A stretch of DNA of 64,000 bases from Calditrichaceae bacterium (GTDB lineage: Bacteria > Calditrichota > Calditrichia > Calditrichales > JBFXGD01): contig JBFXLE010000012.1 of NCBI GenBank assembly GCA_050173015.1, positions 40,745 through 104,744 on the forward strand. Direction: 5' to 3'. The position numbers were made by a program, and so were the translations under genes. Each line of letters starts with the position of its first letter. Positions within the stretch are counted from its first letter, which is position 1. Below are positions 39,284 through 54,473 of the stretch, piece after piece. Under the pieces are notes generated by a model. It was given only the letters and a program-made list of their open reading frames with translations. It had not been told where the DNA came from and made no database searches.

Positions 39284-41098
39284 TTACTTGTTCGTTACTT
39301 TTTTAGACGGCCCGCCGCCAAACAAAACACCAAATTGAAGATACGCGCTTTCCTTTATGTCATGATCATCACGATATTGCTGATACACAGCTTTCAGGAA
39401 AAAATTATAACCTAACTGGATTCTGAGATCCGCGTAATAACCATAGGTTGTTTGTTTGATCTTATCCACCCGGTCACCATCCAGTTCATTGTAAAAATAG
39501 TTTTCTCCGATAAACGCGCCGGCAGACGGATAGAGTGTTTCCCACAATACAAATGGAGTAAATCCAAGATAACCGTTCCAGCTATAGGTAACCAGACTAT
39601 CTTTTTCGACAGAGGATGTGTTCAAATTTGTTGTTTTAAATCTAAAACTGCCGCCTATCGTAAACGGATTCAAATAAACAGAAATATCCCCGATGTAGCC
39701 GTAGTCATCAAGCGGATCAGATATTTCATCGGATTGTGTGATTTCATTCAGCATCTCAGGGGGCAATTGCCAGTAATATCCGCCGAAAGAAATGAGTAAT
39801 CCGTCCGAAACATCGGAAATCCGTTCATTACCAAAGGCGGTCAGACGGAAGAAACGATTTCTTGTTTTAACAAGTTTATAATCACATTCTTTGCCTCGTG
39901 AATCAATGGAAAAGGATTTGTTTTTTGTATCATAGCCTTCTTTTTCTATACGGATTGAAAATTTTCCGGGTTCCAGTTCCAGCTCATATATGGGAATGGC
40001 GCCCATGTAACGGTTATCAATATAAATACCGGCTCCTTCTGTTCCCTTTACTGTGAGCAGTCCATTTGGTGATGGCGAGACCTGCAGATTCAGATCGTAG
40101 TCCCCGGTAACGTCAATATTAAGTGAATCGGGACGATGACGCCGCTTACGGGCTTCAAGTTGATACCGTCCGGCCGGGACTTTTCGTTTAAGAGGTGTCG
40201 AGCCGATGTAATTGTTATCCAGATAAATTTCGGATTCAGGGACATTGCTTTCAATAATTAAAGTACTCTCTTTACGGAGAAGATTTACCTGAATAGGTAC
40301 CGATTTCTCGGGATCATCATTCGGTATTATTTCCATGGCATAAGTAAAAGGATGATAGTAAGGTTTTTCCAGACGCAGAAAAGCCAGGCCTTCGGGAACC
40401 GCGATAGGCAAATCAGGACTGAATGGCGCTTCTTTATCATTGATGTATAAGCGCGCGTCATTTTGTAGAATAGAAATGGTGACATAGCCAAATGTTGGTG
40501 TGAGCGTCACTTCTTCGTTTACGGTTTTACCCTCCTGTATTTTTATAAATATTTCACGACGGACATAGCCTTCTTTGGTGATGATAAATTTCCATGTCTG
40601 CGCGCTCAGATTTTCAAAACGGTGGGGACTGATCTGGTTAAGGCCGGGCATTCCGTCAATTTGTATAGTGGCGCCGGCGGGTTGGGTCTTTAAAATTAGA
40701 TGCCCTTTGCGCGAATTATACTTTGAATCAGCGGAAATCTTTATCACAAATACCGCGCGGGGTGCTAACTGAATACCAGCTTCCGAAAAAATGATTTGCA
40801 TTGGCTGAAAACCGGTGTGTAATATTTCCAGCACACGCTCATCCGGGGACAAATATATGATATCGCGTCCCGGTTGATCATCCACTTTAACTACGCCGTT
40901 ATACGCGTCATAACTGAATCCATCCATGTCGGATATGATCCGGATAGCGGCGCAGAACCGGCCGTTCTCGTCTTTGATTCCAGTCATTTCATCAGAAGAC
41001 TTTTCAGCTTTGCCTACTATTTGAAGTTGAGAGAGATTTTGAGCCTGAAGAAACGCAGATACCAGTAAAATAGCCAGTAACATCCTTGTCATGAGCAT
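39284..41098 (-). CDS. PEGA-repeat exported protein with a C-terminal beta-strand (barrel-like) domain
   Basis: Signal peptide; about four PEGA units (TQPAGATIQIDG, SNVPESEIYLDN..IG.TPL, GAGIYIDN); amphipathic aromatic strands at the C-terminus. Confidence 0.8.
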   Translation of the reverse strand: MLMTRMLLAILLVSAFLQAQNLSQLQIVGKAEKSSDEMTGIKDENGRFCAAIRIISDMDGFSYDAYNGVVKVDDQPGRDIIYLSPDERVLEILHTGFQPMQIIFSEAGIQLAPRAVFVIKISADSKYNSRKGHLILKTQPAGATIQIDGMPGLNQISPHRFENLSAQTWKFIITKEGYVRREIFIKIQEGKTVNEEVTLTPTFGYVTISILQNDARLYINDKEAPFSPDLPIAVPEGLAFLRLEKPYYHPFTYAMEIIPNDDPEKSVPIQVNLLRKESTLIIESNVPESEIYLDNNYIGSTPLKRKVPAGRYQLEARKRRHRPDSLNIDVTGDYDLNLQVSPSPNGLLTVKGTEGAGIYIDNRYMGAIPIYELELEPGKFSIRIEKEGYDTKNKSFSIDSRGKECDYKLVKTRNRFFRLTAFGNERISDVSDGLLISFGGYYWQLPPEMLNEITQSDEISDPLDDYGYIGDISVYLNPFTIGGSFRFKTTNLNTSSVEKDSLVTYSWNGYLGFTPFVLWETLYPSAGAFIGENYFYNELDGDRVDKIKQTTYGYYADLRIQLGYNFFLKAVYQQYRDDHDIKESAYLQFGVLFGGGPSKKVTNK

Positions 41099-42077: not shown

Positions 42078-42211
42078 ATTCTTACTTCCTACTTCTTACT
42101 TAAGGCTAAGGCACTAATTTCCTGTTCTTACTCTTTTTTCTTTTTTCTTTTATCTTTTGTCTTAATTTCCTACTTCCTACTTCCTACTTCTTAATTCTTA
42201 CTTCCTACTTC
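42078..42211 (-). repeat. Heptamer repeat tract (GAAGTAR and AAGAHAA units)
   Basis: CTACTTC/TTACTTC units plus pyrimidine-rich TTTTATC/TTTTGTC units on the plus strand; overlaps the end of the cytochrome gene. Confidence 0.85.
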
Positions 42212-43501
42212 TCCTCCGTACTGCTTTGTCTCATGGCATCCCGAATAGCACATTTTTCCATCTTCGGTTTCCCCAATACGCGCCGGCATTTTCCATTTTC
42301 CAAATGACACTTTTCCGGCAATCAGATGCTCCTGATTTGATCCGTGCATATCGTGACAAAGCACACAGTTGCGGCCTTTATCTCGCTTGACATGCAGATA
42401 ATGGAGATTTTGTTTTCCATCGCTGAATCCAGACGCGTCCATTCCCGGGTCTTCAATAAGTGAGGTTTCATGACAGTTGAAACAAACCGCGAAGGATTCT
42501 GAATCGCCCGGAGCGTATGCGCTATTGGGAAAGTCAGCGTTTAGCAGGCAGGTAAATTCGGAAGAATGGGGAAGATGGCAGGATTCACATCCACCATCCA
42601 TAGCCGGGGCATGGATAAATTCTTTTTCTTCCAAACGATTTTTGATTTTTCCCGCTCTTGAATACTCAACCGGCAGGGAGGTGTCATGACATGTAAGACA
42701 AAGCTCCTCTCTCTGCTGAGTCAGTAATCCATTCATCTCCGATGCGTGAGCTTTATGACAGTCAAGACAGGCTCGTCCATCGTTTATCGCTTTATGCACT
42801 GAAATGTTATCGGATTGGTCTTCATGGCATTCATAGCACTGTCCGGGAACCGGCATCTTCAGAAGTGACGTGTATTGAGATGTGTGAGTGTGATGACAAT
42901 CCGAACATTCCCCCTCATAAGCGGGATGCACATTATTCAATGCCAGCTCATCTTTCTGCTCCTCATGACAGTCGAAACAAAGCTGCGGTGGCTCCTTTTT
43001 CAGAAAAGCTGCATAATCTGATTGATGCGGATTATGACACTCTGTGCATTGGTTGTTTTCCGCCGGCGGATGATTTACCGCCTTTGGATTATTATATAGA
43101 TCATGGCATTTACCGCAAATCTCCCCCTGGTCGGCGGCGATCAGTAGTGCCGCGTTGTTGGAACTGTGGACATCATGACAGGCGGTGCATTCACCTGCGA
43201 CAACCGGAGCATGAACATCATCTTTTTCATGTTTTGAATCATGACAATCATAACAGAGATAGGGCATTTCGTTTAACAGCGAAAATTCATTACCCTCTGA
43301 GCCGGGATGAATAAATCCGTTTGATTCATGACAGGAAGCGCAGTCATCTTCAACGGGCGGATGAATATGCGATCGGTCCAGATATGACCCGTGACATCCT
43401 CCCGCGGTGCAGTCTGATTCCAGTTCTGCCTCTTGAGCAAAAAGAGGAGACTGATGAAAGAATAGTATCACGGCGAAATAAAATATGATCCGAATGGTCA
43501 T
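42191..43501 (-). CDS. Periplasmic multiheme cytochrome c (doubled-CXXCH family), 13 CXXCH plus CX4CH and CX3CH
   Basis: Signal peptide from ATG 43501; repeated H.P....C..CH..H.S....LL......C..CH units. Confidence 0.9.
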   Translation of the reverse strand: MTIRIIFYFAVILFFHQSPLFAQEAELESDCTAGGCHGSYLDRSHIHPPVEDDCASCHESNGFIHPGSEGNEFSLLNEMPYLCYDCHDSKHEKDDVHAPVVAGECTACHDVHSSNNAALLIAADQGEICGKCHDLYNNPKAVNHPPAENNQCTECHNPHQSDYAAFLKKEPPQLCFDCHEEQKDELALNNVHPAYEGECSDCHHTHTSQYTSLLKMPVPGQCYECHEDQSDNISVHKAINDGRACLDCHKAHASEMNGLLTQQREELCLTCHDTSLPVEYSRAGKIKNRLEEKEFIHAPAMDGGCESCHLPHSSEFTCLLNADFPNSAYAPGDSESFAVCFNCHETSLIEDPGMDASGFSDGKQNLHYLHVKRDKGRNCVLCHDMHGSNQEHLIAGKVSFGKWKMPARIGETEDGKMCYSGCHETKQYGGEVGSKN

Positions 43502-43511
43502 GAGTTCATCC

Positions 43512-45479
43512 TTAGAATTTTCTTTCAACACGCATGAATCCGGCATTGTATGTTATCTCTTCCCCGGAAAAATCGCGCCGGTAAGTTTCTAGTCCCACAG
43601 TCAAATACATCTGTCTGAATCGTGTTGTAAATTCACCCCGCAGCGTGGCAAGATTCAGATCAATGCCTCTTCCATCCTGAAAACGGTAGCTTGTTTCCAG
43701 ACTGATTTGCGAGATACGGGAAAGACGATACAAAAACCGGCCGGTTAAATCCCTGAATTTCTGGTCTTCCTCGTCTTCTGTCAATGTATAATTCCGGATA
43801 TTTCCTGAGAGAGAAACATTTAGCCTGCTAAACAAATATCTGTTAAAAGTGATATAATACCGGACTGAATGATAGGGAACGATATTGCTGTTGTAGTCGT
43901 CAATTTCTACCCCGCCGGAAATCGGTCCTTTTGTCAATCGTGTGCCAAATACTCTCTCGGAAACCGTTTTGAGTACGGCTAAATCAGATCCTTCCGGATT
44001 CTCAATATCCTGTTCATATGAACGAAAATATAACTCAGCAAGCTGATTAAAAACGGTTAATCTCGCTCCGAATGCATTACTGAGTATATCGTATTGGTAT
44101 GAGGTCTGCCGTGTTACCGTGTAATCTACGAGAATTTTTGTCCCATCGGGGATTTGGCCACCAGGCAGTCGCTGAATTTCCAGGAAATCGCCTCGTGTAA
44201 TCAGTACATAATCCAGATTCTCCTGATAAGGAATCAACCCTGTTTCATCGGTTACCACAACACTTGCCGGATCCGCGTAAGGATTTTCCAGCAATATTGT
44301 TTGCCCGTCAAACAGAGTAACGGCCTCATTGATAATTCTTGACGGGCTTGGCAGGCTGTTCCGGTTTTCATTTCGCTTCCTGAGCTCGTAGTCGATGGAA
44401 AGGTTGCCGGTCGGGATTTTTTTTATATAGTTGAACCCGATTGTGCCCGTGTTGGTGTACTGATTAAATCCGCTCTGATTAAGATCGATATATTCATAAT
44501 AGGCAAAACTTCTAAGGCTCCGGTATAACTGATGCTCAACTCTACCGGAAATATTATGCTGGTCGGAGCTGAATTCCTTTTGATCAAAAGAAGCATATCG
44601 GTAATCACCAGAAAAATCCAGATTATACGGTAATACGAATCTGATATTCTCAGTGGCGGTTAACCGGTCAAACTCCTCGCTTCCGGTCTGCTTATAATAC
44701 CAGATCAGAGAATTGAGATTATTATTGCGGTTCTTATCCAGGAAGAAATTATCCCGCAGATTGACGCTCGATATTTTATTGTGAATGGATGCGTTTTGCG
44801 CGTATTCACGTGAATAATCTTCATATGAATAAGCAAAACGATGGTCATCATAGCGGCTGAATGATTTGCTGAATTCGGATCTAAAATTATCACGAGTATT
44901 TACAAAATCACGCCCGGTTTGCAATTCCTTTTGTTCCCAGTTTTCATGAGAATAGCTAAATGTTACCGGGAGAATGTCGTTGCGATAGGCAGCTCCTCCG
45001 CCAATATCTGTTCTGTAGTTCTCGACATTGGTCAGGAATTCGCGGTTCACATAACTGTGGCTAAAATTCGTAAACAAGTTAAATGTAAAAGGGCGCTGTT
45101 TAAAAAATGATGTATGGAGATTTAATTTTTCACCTGTTTTTGTTTCAGTGCGGTTTGGAACAACCAAAAACTGATCCCGCCGGATGCCGGGATTGAAGTC
45201 AAAATCGGCATTTATCAACATAAAATTGGGGTGCCAGACATAACTTCTTGATCTTAATAAAATCTCTCCGGAAAAAATCGTGGATTCAGGCTTATCAGAT
45301 AAACCGGATGGATAAACTGTTTCCTGCGAACGGAATTCACTTTCCATAATGACGGAACCGTTCAGCGATTGCAGGCGCCATGCCCCAATCGAATAAAGTT
45401 CACTGTCCTGTCCGGAAGAAGGAGACAGCAACATCAAAAGAAGAGCAGGGATTAAACCAATTATTTTCCGTAACGTCAT
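43512..45479 (-). CDS. Large outer-membrane beta-barrel protein (putative cytochrome-associated porin)
   Basis: Signal peptide, long run of alternating aromatic/polar beta strands, C-terminal Phe (VERKF); sits between cytochrome genes. Confidence 0.75.
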   Translation of the reverse strand: MTLRKIIGLIPALLLMLLSPSSGQDSELYSIGAWRLQSLNGSVIMESEFRSQETVYPSGLSDKPESTIFSGEILLRSRSYVWHPNFMLINADFDFNPGIRRDQFLVVPNRTETKTGEKLNLHTSFFKQRPFTFNLFTNFSHSYVNREFLTNVENYRTDIGGGAAYRNDILPVTFSYSHENWEQKELQTGRDFVNTRDNFRSEFSKSFSRYDDHRFAYSYEDYSREYAQNASIHNKISSVNLRDNFFLDKNRNNNLNSLIWYYKQTGSEEFDRLTATENIRFVLPYNLDFSGDYRYASFDQKEFSSDQHNISGRVEHQLYRSLRSFAYYEYIDLNQSGFNQYTNTGTIGFNYIKKIPTGNLSIDYELRKRNENRNSLPSPSRIINEAVTLFDGQTILLENPYADPASVVVTDETGLIPYQENLDYVLITRGDFLEIQRLPGGQIPDGTKILVDYTVTRQTSYQYDILSNAFGARLTVFNQLAELYFRSYEQDIENPEGSDLAVLKTVSERVFGTRLTKGPISGGVEIDDYNSNIVPYHSVRYYITFNRYLFSRLNVSLSGNIRNYTLTEDEEDQKFRDLTGRFLYRLSRISQISLETSYRFQDGRGIDLNLATLRGEFTTRFRQMYLTVGLETYRRDFSGEEITYNAGFMRVERKF

Positions 45480-45516: not shown

Positions 45517-46125
45517 TTACCTGAATAAATAAGCATCTTCACCGCCGTGCGGATTATGACAATCCAGACAGCTAACTTCGTTTATATCCTGGTGAGCTTC
45601 ATTTTTAAAAACGTCCCCGCTCTGATGACAGAAAAGACATAACTCCTGTCCGTTCCGAATCAAAAGATGTTCATTTTTTGACAGGTGTGGATTATGACAT
45701 TCCGTACAAAATCCGGCCCCCACCGGTCCATGCAGCGCCTCGTAATTATCGTTAAAGTCATCATGACACTGATAGCAAAGGCCCGGTTGCTCATCGAGCA
45801 GGGCATTTCCCTTTTCAGGGACATGGCAGGCATCACATGATTTTTCGGCATAAACAGGGTGCACGGTCATTTTCGGGCGAACGGGATTTGCAGAAGCAGG
45901 TGTACCTGCAACAGGGACAGATGCCAGGACCGTATCAACTGTCGCCGATTGTTCCGCTTCGGGGCCCGGCACTCCGTCAAAAAAGGTAGTAAGAACTTTA
46001 TGACGGCTTTCCGGATGACAGGCAGCCAAAAGCGCGATGACCGTCAATATAAAGAGGTGTGTAATATGAGTTCGCAAGGCTATTCTCTGAAATTTGGTTT
46101 TTGAACAATTTTTCAGATAACACAT
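45517..46125 (-). CDS. Pentaheme cytochrome c lipoprotein (start uncertain)
   Basis: Lipobox LLAAC, FFDGVP, and hemes CDACH, CYQCH, CTECH, CLFCH, CLDCH. Confidence 0.88.
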   Translation of the reverse strand: MCYLKNCSKTKFQRIALRTHITHLFILTVIALLAACHPESRHKVLTTFFDGVPGPEAEQSATVDTVLASVPVAGTPASANPVRPKMTVHPVYAEKSCDACHVPEKGNALLDEQPGLCYQCHDDFNDNYEALHGPVGAGFCTECHNPHLSKNEHLLIRNGQELCLFCHQSGDVFKNEAHQDINEVSCLDCHNPHGGEDAYLFR

Positions 46126-46151: not shown

Positions 46152-47225
46152 TCATTCCTTTACATCAACAAATCCATAGACGTTGATCTTATCAGGTCCA
46201 TACTGATTGGTTACAAAAATCAGATATTGCAATTCGAAACCGGGATGAACATATTTCCGGAAATACTCAAGATTGTCATAATCTATAATCACTTTGGCGG
46301 GCAGCCACATATCACCGGGTCCTTTATAGCTTCCTCCGAAAAACATCAGTAATTGATCTTCTTCATTAAATAGCTGGACATTTTCAAAGCCCGCGTCCAC
46401 CACGTATAAATTGGATTGTTTATCTACCGATATTCCCTTAGGGCGTACAAATTGCCCGGCATTTTTTCCGTAGCTGCCTATGGATCGAATGAATTCGCCT
46501 TCGGTCGTATAAACTTTTACGCGGAAATCACCAAAATCACTCACATAAACCTGATCATTTTTTACGAATAGATTTGTCGGGGAGTACAGGTTGCTTTCCC
46601 CGGTATTCTCATCATTGGGGATCGATCGAATCAGTTTATGGTCTTCTTTTGAAAACGCCAGAATCTTATGGCCTTTGATATCGCTGACCCAGATTAAATT
46701 ATTAGTGACAAAAACATCAGTCGGCCTCAGGATGTCCTCGCTGCCAAAACTGTTCACAAACTTCCCGCTTTCATCAAATATAACGATATCGCCTCTTTCA
46801 GAATCAGCCACATAAACGCGTCCGTCAACATCCACAAAAGAGTTGATCGGTTTCTTTAACTGGCCCTTTCCGGCCGGTTTCAAATATTCAAAAGAACGGG
46901 TATTCAGATCGATAATTTCGAGTCCGCCAAACATGGTGTCGCAGACATATATTCTGCCGCGGTATATAGACAGTCCATACGGTTTGACGATGGACCGGTT
47001 TTCTTCTTCGCCCAGCACATAGCGGGCAAACGCGGAACGACGTCCGGTGATATCGCTTGAACTGCTGATACGGGTTAAAAACTGGATTCTCGTAGTAGCC
47101 GGAGGCGCGGGATAGATGATGACGTTATCGTCGTTCACAGGCCTGTTGAAGGTCCTGTTGCAAGAAAGCGCCATCATCACTATAAAAAAAGACAGAACAA
47201 TTAACTGAATTAAATTCTTCATCAA
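46152..47225 (-). CDS. NHL-repeat beta-propeller lipoprotein
   Basis: Lipobox ALSC; YPAPP...RIQFL; repeats such as KP......GRVYVADS and GQFVRPKGISVD...LYVVD. Confidence 0.88.
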   Translation of the reverse strand: MMKNLIQLIVLSFFIVMMALSCNRTFNRPVNDDNVIIYPAPPATTRIQFLTRISSSSDITGRRSAFARYVLGEEENRSIVKPYGLSIYRGRIYVCDTMFGGLEIIDLNTRSFEYLKPAGKGQLKKPINSFVDVDGRVYVADSERGDIVIFDESGKFVNSFGSEDILRPTDVFVTNNLIWVSDIKGHKILAFSKEDHKLIRSIPNDENTGESNLYSPTNLFVKNDQVYVSDFGDFRVKVYTTEGEFIRSIGSYGKNAGQFVRPKGISVDKQSNLYVVDAGFENVQLFNEEDQLLMFFGGSYKGPGDMWLPAKVIIDYDNLEYFRKYVHPGFELQYLIFVTNQYGPDKINVYGFVDVKE

Positions 47226-47310: not shown

Positions 47311-47934
47311 TTATTTATTATGACAGGTCAGACACAAGGCGCTCGACGAATTGGATATGATGAGCAACTTGCTGAATCCCTGGCTGTTATGTACATCATG
47401 ACAGGAGGCGCACTGCACTTTACCGCCGATTAACATGTCATTGCTAATGGTGCCGCCCATGCCTGAATTCGCGGTGGTCGGATCGTATAATCCGCCGTCT
47501 GAGTTTGCCAGCGCCGCGTCATAAGTAAAAGAAACCGGGTGATCATCACTAAGATCTGTTCCCACAAGGCTGTTTCCGGTAATAAAATGGCTTCCGCCTG
47601 TTTGGCCGCCGTAATTGTCAACGGCTATGGTGCCGTCATGACAGCTCATACAGAGTTTTGATGAAGCATCCGGTTGGCCCACAGTGGCGTTCATGGACGC
47701 GCTGCTGTAAGGAGTAAATGTGGCGGAGGTCATCTCATGATTCCATAACGGGGCATCGCTGACGGATACATCGGCATTGTGAGTAGTATGGCAGACGATG
47801 CAAATCTGGTCGCTGGTATTCCAGGCCGCGGATGAAAAATCGTGGGCGGATCCGACAATGGACTGCGCCAACGCGGTGCCGCTGAGCACCAGGGTAAAAG
47901 TTACAGCAAAGCAAAAACCTAATAATCGTTTCAT
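47311..47934 (-). CDS. Tetraheme cytochrome c, OmcE-like
   Basis: Signal peptide (ALA-Q) from ATG 47934; SIVGSAHDFS, DQICIVCHTTHNA, PLWNH, CMSCHDG, GTDLSDDHPV, CASCHDVHN, LCLTCHNK. Confidence 0.85.
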   Translation of the reverse strand: MKRLLGFCFAVTFTLVLSGTALAQSIVGSAHDFSSAAWNTSDQICIVCHTTHNADVSVSDAPLWNHEMTSATFTPYSSASMNATVGQPDASSKLCMSCHDGTIAVDNYGGQTGGSHFITGNSLVGTDLSDDHPVSFTYDAALANSDGGLYDPTTANSGMGGTISNDMLIGGKVQCASCHDVHNSQGFSKLLIISNSSSALCLTCHNK

Positions 47935-47984
47935 GACTGTTCCTTTCAATTGTTTTATTGCCCTAAAATGTGAAAATCTTCCTG

Positions 47985-49679
47985 CTAATAAGTTTTTGGA
48001 TCATGATCTTCTCCGTGACATACTAAATAACATGACCCTCTGGAGGATCCCTGATCAATAAACTCCAGTCTTGTACCGGAGGGGAATACAACGGAAACAT
48101 CAAAATTAATAAGATGTGTGTTATTGGTCGCATTTCCCTGTAAACTGCTTATTCCATGCGGATCGTGACATACGTTGCAGGGGGTATCTTCAGCAACGAT
48201 ATGCCTCCAGTGTACTTTTCTCGCAAAACTGCCGCTGCTGTTGATGATTGTATTTCGGTTGTGGCATTCATAGCATAAGCGGTAATTGTCATAAGATTCG
48301 GTTGTATAATCCGCGGTAACATACTGATATTTTAATATCTGCGGGTATATGGATCCGTGAGGTCCCGCCGGCGCGCCCGTTCCGTCGCTGGCATGACAAT
48401 GGGTGCAGTAAATTATGCTTGATGCTGTGTAAGGTGATATCATCGACAAGACATTTGGATTTTTGCCGACTGCCTCAATCGGGTGGTATGAAGGGTTAGC
48501 CGGATCATATTCAAGACGCGTGTTGGATTGTTCAATCAATCTGATAGTCGGGCTGCCGGGTTTATCGGGACTGTCGGCATGGCATTTATAACACAACTCA
48601 TACTGGTATTGTACCGTTTCGACCGCTGTTCCGTTTGTATTCAATCCGCTTGTGCCGGCAATGAATCCATTGGCGTTTGGCGCGGTGGCTGCTGAGAGTT
48701 TGCTGGAGTGTGGATTATGACAATCTTCGCACTCAACATGTCTGTTCTGGACAGGAATATTTTCTTCCGGATCATGGACACCGGCATAATTGTAAACATC
48801 ATGAATATACGGTTTGGTTGTGATAATTGTCTGAATGTTTTTAGCGGCGACATTTCCGTTATGGCAGTCCAGACAGTTATTCTCTTCCGTGAGTGAATTC
48901 AGCAGACGATCATGACTCTCTGAGTTATGAGGATTATGACAGTTTTCACAGCCGTTTTCCGCCACATTCGCGTAGGGGGTGTGAAACCAGGGATCATTTC
49001 CGGAGCCGTTCCACGTCGCGATTGAATTTTTATGCGATGAATTGACCCAGTCATTTTTCTGATGGCAATAGAGACAAAGATCAGAGTTTTGGTTGGTGGC
49101 GACCAGAAACTGTCCGTATAAATCGACATGCGGATCATGGCAGGAAGTGCATTGAACACGCTCGTTTGCAAGTTTAACCGGCCCGGTAAGAACGGCTGGA
49201 TCGCTTAGTTCACCATCAGCCGCCGATAAAGCGGAATTATATAAAAAGGACACCGGGTGATCATCCGATAAATCGGTGGATAAATTTTTATTACCGGATG
49301 GCATCATCGTAATTCCGCCACTGAATTCTATGGGTGCCGGTTTGCTTAAAACATTACCGAGAGCGATGGTGCCGTCATGACAGGAAAGGCATAATAGTGA
49401 AGCGCCGTCCGGCTGCCCTGGGGAGGCCTGTGTGGTAGAACTGCCGTAAATTGTGTAGGTTAATCCCGGATCTTCACGATTCCATAATGGTTTTCTCGGG
49501 CTGCTCTTATGCGGAGTGTGACAAAAAACGCAGATTTCAGATTCGCTGCTGGCCTTAACTGTTCCCGGGCCGGTGACGGATAAATTATGAACTGAATTCA
49601 CAATTGATTGTGAAAGCGCGATAGATGGAATCATTAATAAAAAGGTCCAGGTTTTCAGTAGCTTATTTTTCATCGGCAT
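47985..49679 (-). CDS. Multiheme cytochrome c (11 CXXCH plus CX3CH) with N-terminal OmcE-like module
   Basis: Signal peptide; the first four hemes are collinear with 47311-47934, followed by eight further heme motifs. Confidence 0.88.
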   Translation of the reverse strand: MPMKNKLLKTWTFLLMIPSIALSQSIVNSVHNLSVTGPGTVKASSESEICVFCHTPHKSSPRKPLWNREDPGLTYTIYGSSTTQASPGQPDGASLLCLSCHDGTIALGNVLSKPAPIEFSGGITMMPSGNKNLSTDLSDDHPVSFLYNSALSAADGELSDPAVLTGPVKLANERVQCTSCHDPHVDLYGQFLVATNQNSDLCLYCHQKNDWVNSSHKNSIATWNGSGNDPWFHTPYANVAENGCENCHNPHNSESHDRLLNSLTEENNCLDCHNGNVAAKNIQTIITTKPYIHDVYNYAGVHDPEENIPVQNRHVECEDCHNPHSSKLSAATAPNANGFIAGTSGLNTNGTAVETVQYQYELCYKCHADSPDKPGSPTIRLIEQSNTRLEYDPANPSYHPIEAVGKNPNVLSMISPYTASSIIYCTHCHASDGTGAPAGPHGSIYPQILKYQYVTADYTTESYDNYRLCYECHNRNTIINSSGSFARKVHWRHIVAEDTPCNVCHDPHGISSLQGNATNNTHLINFDVSVVFPSGTRLEFIDQGSSRGSCYLVCHGEDHDPKTY

Positions 49680-50679
49680 CCTTGTATATCAGTTCAAACA
49701 TCTGTATGCGCGCGTTATAGCTGTCGGCTATGTAGATACGATCCTGGTGATCGATATATATTCCCGACGGAAGCCAGAATTCACCCCGGCCCCGGCCCTG
49801 TTTACCAAAATAATGAAGAAAGTTTCCTTCTTTATCAAAAATCTGGACGGTATGGAAAAGCCCGTCCACCACGTAAATTTGTCCATGTGAGTCAGCAGCG
49901 ATTCCTTTCGGGGCTGAAAAATAGCCGCTGGCGTCGCCGGCTTCACCAAAAATATTCACAAGTTCACCTGATTTATTAAAGACCTGAATCCGAAAATTCA
50001 TTGAGTCAACCACATAGACATTACCCTTATCATCGATGGTGAGATAAGTGGGAAAATTAAATTCAGCGGGCCCGGTTCCGCGTTGTCCAATTATTCTCAG
50101 TAGTTTGCCGGACTTATCCAATACAAGGATACGGTGTTTCCCGGTTTCCGTTACCCATATTTCATTTGAAACATTTGAAAAACCGATTCCCGTCGGTCTG
50201 TCAATTTCTAATGAGGGATTTAATAGACCGGTTTTTCCCATTGTAACATTTTGGACATATATTTGATTGGTTTTTGAATCTGTAAGAAGCAGTGAATTTG
50301 AATCAAACCCGGACATACCGATAAGTGACGGAAAGCCGGTTTGTTTTTCCTGATAAAAGTTTTTGACCTGACCGGAATTTTGATCAATAAATGTCAGGGA
50401 TTTAGCGCCCTGATCGAGTACCCAGATGGAATCAGGATCATCCGCGAAAACTGCCACCGGTCTTATTAACGAGTGGAAATCTTTTCCGAAAATAAAATTA
50501 AACATTAACTTCGTAAAACCGGGCTTACTTTTCAAATCATCAGAAGATGCAAACTGTCCGGTCCATTTAACAGCGTGGGAATCGCTTCCGGAAACTACAG
50601 ACTGATTTTCAACTGCCAGGCTCAGCATTGGAAATATGATCAGAATGGTGAATGATACTAACAGGAAATTCCGTTTCAT
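49663..50679 (-). CDS. NHL-repeat beta-propeller exported protein
   Basis: Signal peptide; RPTGI, FNFPT...D..G.VYVVDSMNFRIQVF, F..PKGIA.DS.G.IYVVD, FWLPSGI.ID...IYIADSYN.RIQ. Confidence 0.9.
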   Translation of the reverse strand: MKRNFLLVSFTILIIFPMLSLAVENQSVVSGSDSHAVKWTGQFASSDDLKSKPGFTKLMFNFIFGKDFHSLIRPVAVFADDPDSIWVLDQGAKSLTFIDQNSGQVKNFYQEKQTGFPSLIGMSGFDSNSLLLTDSKTNQIYVQNVTMGKTGLLNPSLEIDRPTGIGFSNVSNEIWVTETGKHRILVLDKSGKLLRIIGQRGTGPAEFNFPTYLTIDDKGNVYVVDSMNFRIQVFNKSGELVNIFGEAGDASGYFSAPKGIAADSHGQIYVVDGLFHTVQIFDKEGNFLHYFGKQGRGRGEFWLPSGIYIDHQDRIYIADSYNARIQMFELIYKDADEK

Positions 50680-51090
50680 CAGGACAAAATCCTTTTAAGT
50701 ACGTTCATGGGTGCCATGTGAAAAAATATACTTATTTAGACCGATTATCAATTTAATCGTAAAAAAGTTAATTCCTAATGTAAGATAATGGTTAAATTCA
50801 GCCCTTGTATGTGCTCTAAATCAATTTCAGATTGTATATAAAAGTATGACACTTATTCAGTGACATGGAAGATATAAAAAAAAATGGCGGTTGAAAATGA
50901 TTTTTTAAAAAACCTATGCAGGACAGTAATGTCAATGAAGTAATTATAACCCGCGCGGAGAATTGACCGGACAAAAACAATATTCACAAAAAAATTATTT
51001 GTTTCGGAAACTATCCTGTCAATTCCCCGGCGTCAGGTTAATGAGATGATTTGGCGGATATGTCTGATCCGGCATGCCCGGGGAATGAAA

Positions 51091-54063: not shown

Positions 54064-54252
54064 TAAGTAGGAAGTGGGAAGTAGGAAGTAAGAAGTAAGA
54101 AGTAGGAAGTAAGAAATAGGAAGTGAGAAGTAAGAAGTAAGAAGTAAGAAGTAGGAAGTAAGAAGTGGGAAGTAAGAAATAGGAAGTGAGAAGTGGGAAG
54201 TGGGAAGTAGGAAGTAAGAAGTAGGAATTAAGAGATGGGAAGTGGGAAGTAG
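54064..54252 (+). repeat. Tandem heptamer array, 27 units of consensus GAAGTRR
   Basis: 189 bp in unbroken 7-bp register (GAAGTAA, GAAGTAG, GAAGTGG, GAAGTGA, with a few variants). Confidence 0.95.
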
Positions 54253-54272
54253 GGACAAGGCCTGCCTTGTCC
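54249..54272 (+). repeat. GTAG-REP-like palindrome
   Basis: GTAG followed by GGACAAGGC-ct-GCCTTGTCC. Confidence 0.65.
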
Positions 54273-54473
54273 GGGAAGTTTAAGAAAAAAGAAAAATGAT
54301 AAAAGAAAAAAGAGAAGAGATCCTTTGTCTGAAACAGGAATTATAGAGCCTTAAGAGTAGAGACGTCTCAAATTTGCGTGTGGCTGGTCTGGTCTCATAA
54401 TTTATAAGAATTGATCTTTAAATATTCAGGTTCTATTTTATACAATATTTTTCTATAAAATTGGGGAAATTTT

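Follow-up and report, generated by a model that had tools for sequence, protein, structure and literature searches.

The open reading frame at 47311–47934 (minus strand) of the DNA analysed here, a stretch of 64,000 nucleotides from a Calditrichaceae bacterium (the window), encodes P0001, a tetrahaem cytochrome that is clearly related to OmcE and is an ordinary member of a widespread family. The most likely role of this protein is that of a Sec-exported subunit repeated along an extracellular haem wire, and we infer with good support that it is a filament subunit. Cytochrome nanowires have been solved in just a handful of organisms, and Calditrichota are common sediment and hydrothermal bacteria; P0001 adds this phylum to the lineages with a full OmcE kit. 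The gene belongs to a cluster of seven co-oriented genes running from 50679 down to 42191 on the minus strand, in the order NHL, 12-haem fusion, OmcE (P0001), NHL, pentahaem cytochrome, 655-aa protein, and 13-CXXCH cytochrome. The features of the cluster are listed below, together with the evidence for each.

50994..51022, minus strand: promoter-like TTGACA-17-AATAAT upstream of the first cluster gene (11 of 12 consensus positions; weak)
49663..50679, minus strand: NHL-repeat six-bladed β-propeller, 338 aa, with a signal peptide but without a lipobox Cys (PF01436, E 1.3e-25; N-terminus)
47985..49679, minus strand: 12-haem cytochrome, 564 aa, an OmcE module with an eight-haem extension (sequence, profile, docking)
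47940..47947, minus strand: Shine-Dalgarno-like GAAAGGAA, 6–13 nt before the ATG of the P0001 gene (sequence only)
47311..47934, minus strand: P0001 gene, OmcE-family tetrahaem cytochrome, 207 aa (mature 184 aa) (ORF, motifs, PDB matches, AF2 model)
47866..47934, minus strand: P0001 signal peptide, residues 1–23, ending in ALA before QSIV (read from the sequence)
46152..47225, minus strand: NHL β-propeller, 357 aa, probably a lipoprotein (MALSC) (PF17170, PF01436; lipobox by eye)
45517..46125, minus strand: pentahaem cytochrome, 202 aa, probably a lipoprotein (LLAAC) (family scans, N-terminus)
43512..45479, minus strand: secreted protein, 655 aa, putative large outer-membrane β-barrel, ending in ERKF (position in the cluster)
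42191..43546, minus strand: cytochrome, 451 aa, 13 CXXCH, MtrA/DmsE-like below the family cut-off (TIGR03508, 138 bits against a cut-off of 192)

The P0001 frame opens with an ATG at 47934 and closes with a stop codon at 47311–47313, which is included in the coordinates. Initiation at an upstream TTG would lengthen the protein by five residues; the ribosome-binding site suits the ATG better, and this is the probable start. The Shine-Dalgarno-like element agrees with the strong ribosome-binding site claimed in an earlier, sequence-only reading of this DNA. Residues 2–21 of the signal peptide form a helix in the AF2 model, and cleavage probably takes place after ALA. The motifs that the sequence-only reading had quoted were all found in the translation, and in the same order: QSIVGSAHDFS at the start of the mature protein, DQICIVCHTTHNA, PLWN, CMSCHDG, GTDLSDDHPV, CASCHDVH, and the terminal LCLTCHNK. 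The protein has four CXXCH motifs, at C45, C95, C175, and C201, and ten His in total. Ser, Thr, Gly, and Ala make up 41.8% of the mature chain, in keeping with the composition noted earlier. The description of the protein as compact holds for its length of 207 aa but does not set it apart, most of its close relatives being 203–207 aa long; 118 of the 120 closest relatives have four CXXCH motifs. No terminator-like site was found directly 3' of the gene.

When P0001 was compared with all PDB chains using phmmer, two full-length matches were obtained, 7TFS (E 8.4e-28, with the alignment covering P0001 residues 9–207) and 9YUQ (E 1.9e-23). The third match, NrfB, had an E value of 0.77, so that only the two OmcE subunits were significant. 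7TFS is described as the OmcE (GSU0618) filament of Geobacter sulfurreducens (PMC9473688, PMC12954529, PMC13712944), and 9YUQ as OmcE of Desulfuromonas soudanensis WTL, which forms anti-parallel bundles (PMC13712944). The identity of P0001 to the solved OmcE subunits is only about 37–41%; the two solved subunits are reported to share 41% with each other (PMC13712944). Judged by these alignments, the likeness of P0001 to OmcE is far beyond chance. The AF2 model of P0001 (149 relatives in the alignment) has a pLDDT of 93.6 and a pTM of 0.85, and its sole Foldseek match in the PDB is again 7TFS (E 1.2e-9, TM 0.65/0.67, rmsd 5.0). Thus, the OmcE likeness proposed in the sequence-only reading is upheld by an end-to-end alignment to 7TFS, by a fold match to 7TFS alone, and by an omcE-type gene cluster; the pairwise alignment that it had suggested as a check, with a low or partial match as the outcome that would count against it, extends over the full length.

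P0001 and 7TFS belong to the same length class and share the order of the four CXXCH motifs, four extra His residues, a mostly coil fold, and a Sec signal. They differ in sequence (~37% identity) and in the length of the loops, which are shorter in P0001 (207 against 232 aa), and P0001 has a His where OmcE has an Arg after PLWN. While 7TFS is a solved filament, P0001 is known here from its sequence, a model, and its gene context. With 9YUQ, P0001 shares conserved motifs in addition to the full-length match. Since the bundle-forming loops of D. soudanensis OmcE are reported not to be conserved even in close OmcE homologues (PMC13712944), we make no statement on bundling of P0001.

Family annotation could also suggest a soluble periplasmic tetrahaem carrier of the cytochrome c3, c7, or STC type that feeds an outer-membrane module. 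The nearest relatives of P0001 are annotated as 'cytochrome c3 family protein', Pfam Cytochrome_C7 and c3_2 match it, and there is no OmcE model among its Pfam and NCBIfam matches. However, the Pfam matches are confined to the C-terminal doubled CXXCH, within the last 35 residues, while the whole length and the fold match OmcE, and neither PDB search, by sequence or by fold, returned a c3 or c7 structure. We consider such a carrier highly improbable.

The haem ligands of P0001 also follow the OmcE pattern. The sequence-only reading had pointed to extra His residues; these are H31, H52, H132, and H182, which stand opposite His residues of 7TFS. In the phmmer alignments, the four His and the four CXXCH motifs face matching residues in both 7TFS and 9YUQ. 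Conservation was counted over 233 four-haem relatives of 190–245 aa. The Cys and His residues of the CXXCH motifs are 100% conserved in this set, as are H132 and H182, while H31 and H52 are conserved in 99% and 97% of the relatives, respectively. In the P0001 alignment A1, conservation in the same ligand columns is at least 90% or complete. In PMC13712944, four further conserved His residues, which would provide bis-His ligation of all haems, serve as a criterion for OmcE. At each subunit junction of the OmcE filament, the adjacent subunit is described as supplying a His ligand to one haem (PMC9473688, PMC12954529). A ninth His of P0001, H66 (PLWNH), is conserved in 92% of the 233 relatives and could, in principle, close the open haem within the monomer. 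Both solved OmcEs have Arg at the H66 position, as do the corresponding module of the 12-haem neighbour and 11 of 115 diverse relatives. Since His and Arg exchange at this position, H66 may be better read as a partner of a haem propionate than as an axial ligand.

The genes around P0001 were compared with published omcE clusters. A minimal omcE cluster is described as comprising two multihaem cytochromes, two β-propeller lipoproteins, OmcE, and a large barrel, and nearby genes for a large outer-membrane barrel and a β-propeller lipoprotein are used to single out possible wire-building homologues (PMC13712944). The window has both near P0001, the barrel being putative. All genes of the cluster except that for the 12-haem protein fit this 2026 omcE kit. 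Like the Desulfuromonadia clusters, the Calditrichota cluster is co-oriented and has two β-propellers, a large putative barrel, multihaem cytochromes, and a small subunit; unlike them, it has a third cytochrome, the 12-haem fusion with an OmcE module, and the order NHL-fusion-OmcE-NHL-cytochrome-barrel-cytochrome. The 655-aa protein occupies the place of the barrel in the omcE clusters of PMC13712944, and its position is conserved. Neither Pfam nor NCBIfam assigns it to a family; a 'tail tube' match in NCBIfam, with 28.7 bits against a cut-off of 60, was ignored. Its structural neighbours in the Atlas are unnamed proteins of Bacteroidota, Planctomycetota, and Thermodesulfobacteriota, and the Atlas also gives a weak lead, at 0.89, to Porin_4. 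Its position, the C-terminal Phe, and the Porin_4 lead together make it a putative outer-membrane barrel. The promoter-like site upstream of the first gene is considered weak, because such sites are as numerous in the region as in shuffled sequences.

Several other features were observed near the cluster. Directly downstream of it, a gene at 39284–41098 (minus strand) encodes a 604-aa secreted protein with three PEGA domains, which is 83% identical in a genome of the same genus. Two arrays of one and the same heptanucleotide, on opposite strands, flank the region at 42132–42211 and 54065–54313. The first, TTCCTAC repeated 6.4 times, overlaps with the gene for the 13-haem cytochrome at its 3' end, and the second, AAGTAGG repeated 27 times, lies ~12 kb away; each adjoins a short T-rich or A-rich heptamer array.

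The gene next upstream of P0001, which encodes the 12-haem protein, contains a second OmcE module that was absent from the sequence-only reading. Residues 1–208 of this neighbour are 41% identical to P0001 over the whole length of P0001 (E 6e-46), and the module shares with P0001 the QSIV N-terminus and all eight His. Residues 209–564 contribute seven CXXCH motifs and one CX3CH, which brings the total to 12 haems, and every haem motif is invariant in 115 orthologues. Also invariant in these orthologues is His216 (in W-x-x-S-x-H-x-x-S-x-x-x-W), ten residues past the haem-4 His; it is kept in 50 of 50 full-length 12-haem forms from many phyla. A profile of the small family aligned with the first 118 residues of the extension with an hhalign probability of 97.1% (E 6.4e-11). 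Scores of this kind may be inflated with CXXCH-rich profiles; the non-haem motifs of the extension align as well. Since the motifs align in order, with the His216 segment leading and haems 5, 6, and 7 matching haems 1, 2, and 3 in turn, the extension appears to begin as a condensed second OmcE module. The extension was also compared with MtrC/OmcA-type outer decahaem cytochromes, which have pentahaem domains II/IV flanked by β-barrel domains; residues 238–369 match PF22113 (MtrC/MtrF domain II/IV) with 50 bits against a cut-off of 30. A sequence search returned no PDB relative of the extension, and Foldseek gave no significant match for the neighbour beyond 7TFS (model pLDDT 72.8). Two identities for the neighbour were considered and dropped: OmcQ, which has been grouped with GSU1996, and a fused OmcP and OmcO, as the OmcO homologue Gmet_0558 is given 27 haems and OmcP is only said to group with OmcE.

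To evaluate how the two proteins might fit together, P0001 was docked with the mature 12-haem neighbour as one hetero pair, each chain having its own alignment. The ipSAE values were 0.78, 0.76, and 0.79, and the best control gave 0.00. The mark used is reached by 116 of 157 solved complexes and by 2 of 215 mismatched pairs, counts that are only approximate for chains with their own alignments. The docking runs agreed in at least 96% of the contacts, and the pLDDT of the partner was at least 87. The interface comprises P0001 residues 76, 78–81, 124, 129–132, 178, 195–198, 201–202, and 207, and neighbour residues 25–27, 34, 36, 47–51, 56–61, 63–65, 171–172, and 184. In the predicted complex, the haem-4/C-terminal face of P0001 meets the N-terminus/haem-1 face of the neighbour, head to tail; this outcome may reflect the model's memory of solved OmcE filaments and speaks for likeness rather than for binding. 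In the predicted interface, the haem-1 motif and the H57 loop of the next module face the loop of P0001 that holds H132. Candidates for the His that would cross the junction are His132, which is the closest to the haem-1 motif of the partner in the docking model, and His31.

A head-to-tail geometry is supported, independently of the docking model, by the spacing of motifs in proteins with tandem modules. In such proteins, the haem-4 His and the N-terminal His of the next module are mostly 9–10 residues apart, and the same spacing is seen in the neighbour (206 to 216) and would result if two P0001 chains were abutted C- to N-terminus. The tandem arrangement itself occurs in P0121, P0122, P0123, and P0125, each a single chain that contains between two and four OmcE-like tetrahaem modules in a row (P0121 has 1400 aa and 16 CXXCH motifs in four modules, and P0123 has two full modules). 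Such proteins would, in effect, be covalently pre-joined segments of a wire.

The modelled interaction, a single 1:1 hetero pair of P0001 with its neighbour, would also suit a finite conduit. According to this main rival explanation, P0001 does not polymerise; one or a few copies dock on the 12-haem protein at the mouth of the barrel, and the result is a porin-cytochrome conduit of Mtr-like type with ~16 extracellular haems rather than a micrometre wire. The MtrC/MtrF-type match of the extension, the 13-haem cytochrome with its MtrA/DmsE-like match (below the cut-off), and the possible closure of the open haem in cis by H66 are all consistent with such a conduit. Furthermore, 'OmcE-like' cytochromes of 8–13 haems are described from the EET1-4 clusters of peat Acidobacteriota and Verrucomicrobiota, and these related clusters are read as finite Mtr-like conduits in a 2026 preprint (10.64898/2026.05.27.727921). 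Like MtrCAB and the EET1-4 clusters, the cluster studied here combines a periplasmic MtrA-like cytochrome with a barrel and outer cytochromes. A polymer has no part in the published reading of those systems; the present cluster encodes, besides the large cytochrome, a four-haem OmcE homologue as a separate protein. Against a finite conduit, both close solved relatives of P0001 are filaments, and the tandem multi-module relatives show that the head-to-tail repeat can be iterated. The face by which the neighbour binds P0001 in the model is also present on P0001, with an identical N-terminal QSIV and identity at 11 of 21 interface positions (against 41% identity overall, a difference too weak to serve as a test). 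Therefore, further copies of P0001 should be able to add, and we regard a finite conduit as unlikely.

On the favoured reading, in which P0001 is a wire subunit, the mature protein of 184 residues would carry four bis-His haems. In a head-to-tail stack, each subunit would place its haem-4/C-terminal face on the haem-1/N-terminal face of the next, and one haem per junction would be completed by a His of the neighbouring subunit, as in the solved OmcE filaments. Electrons would enter the wire by way of the 13-haem MtrA-like cytochrome, the 655-aa putative barrel, the pentahaem lipoprotein, and the two NHL propellers; the same components would export, anchor, and feed the insulated wire. The 12-haem protein would probably follow the last small subunit at the polymer's haem-4 end, its OmcE module joined to that subunit by the normal head-to-tail interface and its extension in the place of a further subunit. 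With the forward face of the module filled in cis by the extension, the polymer could end there, and the 12-haem protein might couple the wire to the outer-membrane conduit or to a mineral.

We tentatively propose, as an idea that may well prove wrong, that the 12-haem neighbour is a built-in terminal subunit, i.e., an operon-encoded tip or anchor. The Discussion of PMC13712944 treats as open how cytochrome wires begin, how they terminate, and how they are linked to the cell, and a protein that is half subunit and half multihaem adaptor offers a concrete, testable candidate for wire ends. The same Discussion raises an analogy with chaperone-usher pili, whose tip and anchor subunits are likewise operon-encoded variants of the major subunit that join the polymer one-sidedly; there is no homology between the two systems. 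According to the paper, OmcE operons encode no candidate for a tip or an anchor. In agreement with this, no match to the extension was present within the 14-kb loci of canonical OmcE-like genes in two of two cases (L122 and L124; the L122 gene matches 7TFS with E 5.4e-119). If true, the proposal would hold generally across one large branch of OmcE-type wires, since the pair of P0001 and its neighbour is conserved from Calditrichota to a Geobacter-labelled genome.

The OmcE module of the neighbour is itself at least as OmcE-like as P0001: taken alone, it matches 7TFS with E 4.7e-32, compared to 8.4e-28 for P0001. One could thus imagine that the 12-haem protein is the repeating unit, or that the polymer is mixed, with P0001 as a minor adaptor. 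The haem-4 end of the neighbour, however, runs into its own extension, which begins like a condensed second OmcE-like module. With the forward face so occupied in cis, a head-to-tail repeat in the manner of OmcE would not be expected, and we give this arrangement very little credence.

The 12-haem form is found well beyond the window, and its place beside the small subunit gene is conserved in many phyla. Full-length forms are present in 45 of 75 named loci, many of the other loci being short contigs. Of 121 genomes sampled from the class to which the Geobacter-labelled genome belongs, at least 24 have the 12-haem form among the matches listed. All 12 loci from this class that were inspected have, along with the fusion, an OmcE-like small gene, both propellers, and the pentahaem cytochrome, a rate that is biased by the choice of these loci through the large protein. 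At two loci (L121 and L123, genomes G093 and G201), an NHL propeller gene is followed by two adjacent genes between which the 12-haem architecture appears to be divided. The first of the two encodes an OmcE-like protein of ~255 aa, and the second a protein of ~375 aa that matches residues 279–564; such split pairs occur in many genomes of the Geobacter-labelled class.

The P0001 family is very large: at E ≤ 1e-5 it comprises 5105 clusters, and at E ≤ 1e-3 there are 5131 representatives (50% identity level). A scan of species genomes yielded 550 P0001 relatives, and 75 loci were kept. By title, the kept loci come from Calditrichota, Bacteroidota, Ignavibacteriota or Chlorobiota, Gemmatimonadota, Acidobacteriota, Pseudomonadota, Myxococcota, Verrucomicrobiota, Planctomycetota, Spirochaetota, Sumerlaeota, Nitrospirae, Binatia, Desulfobacterota including Geobacter sp., and a Halobacteroidaceae genome. 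PMC13712944 names five phyla for the omcE cluster, among them neither Calditrichota nor most of the phyla of the 75 loci. No paper in the literature collection that was searched links OmcE with Calditrichota, and the Caldithrix genome paper does not mention extracellular electron transfer.

A quick tree was built from 180 modules, with three rows of intermediate architecture and exact duplicates left out. The modules of the large proteins group together (72 rows, SH-aLRT 89), P0001 falls in a 25-row group of small subunits (SH-aLRT 87), and the canonical OmcE-like pair (L122, L124) sits on a separate long branch; the deep forks are weak. With 79 of 177 forks open, we make no claim on the ancestral form.

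The closest named relatives of P0001 bear the labels Calditrichaceae (92% identity), Caldithrix abyssi, KSB1, and Chlorobi; one protein labelled Caldithrix abyssi, P0078, is 67% identical to P0001. The genome from which the window derives (4.34 Mb, 97.5% complete) has just two OmcE modules, that of P0001 and that of the 12-haem neighbour. Matches to P0001 at E ≤ 1e-10 were obtained in 36 of the 86 genomes of the phylum, and 29 genomes have an orthologue at 63% identity or above. In 28 of these 29, there is a second match inside a frame of 491–674 aa; it lies on the same contig within 5 kb in 24 genomes and on another contig of a fragmented assembly in four. The remaining genome carries only the small gene, on a contig of 2.7 kb. 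The block of 12-haem fusion, OmcE, NHL, pentahaem cytochrome, and 655-aa protein is present in 15 of 16 loci of the phylum, and the complete seven-gene cluster in 11 of 16. Three Calditrichota loci (L021, L023, and L026, of genomes G006, G032, and G050) have ~3 kb of extra DNA between the large and small cytochrome genes, and further OmcE-like paralogues are found nearby.
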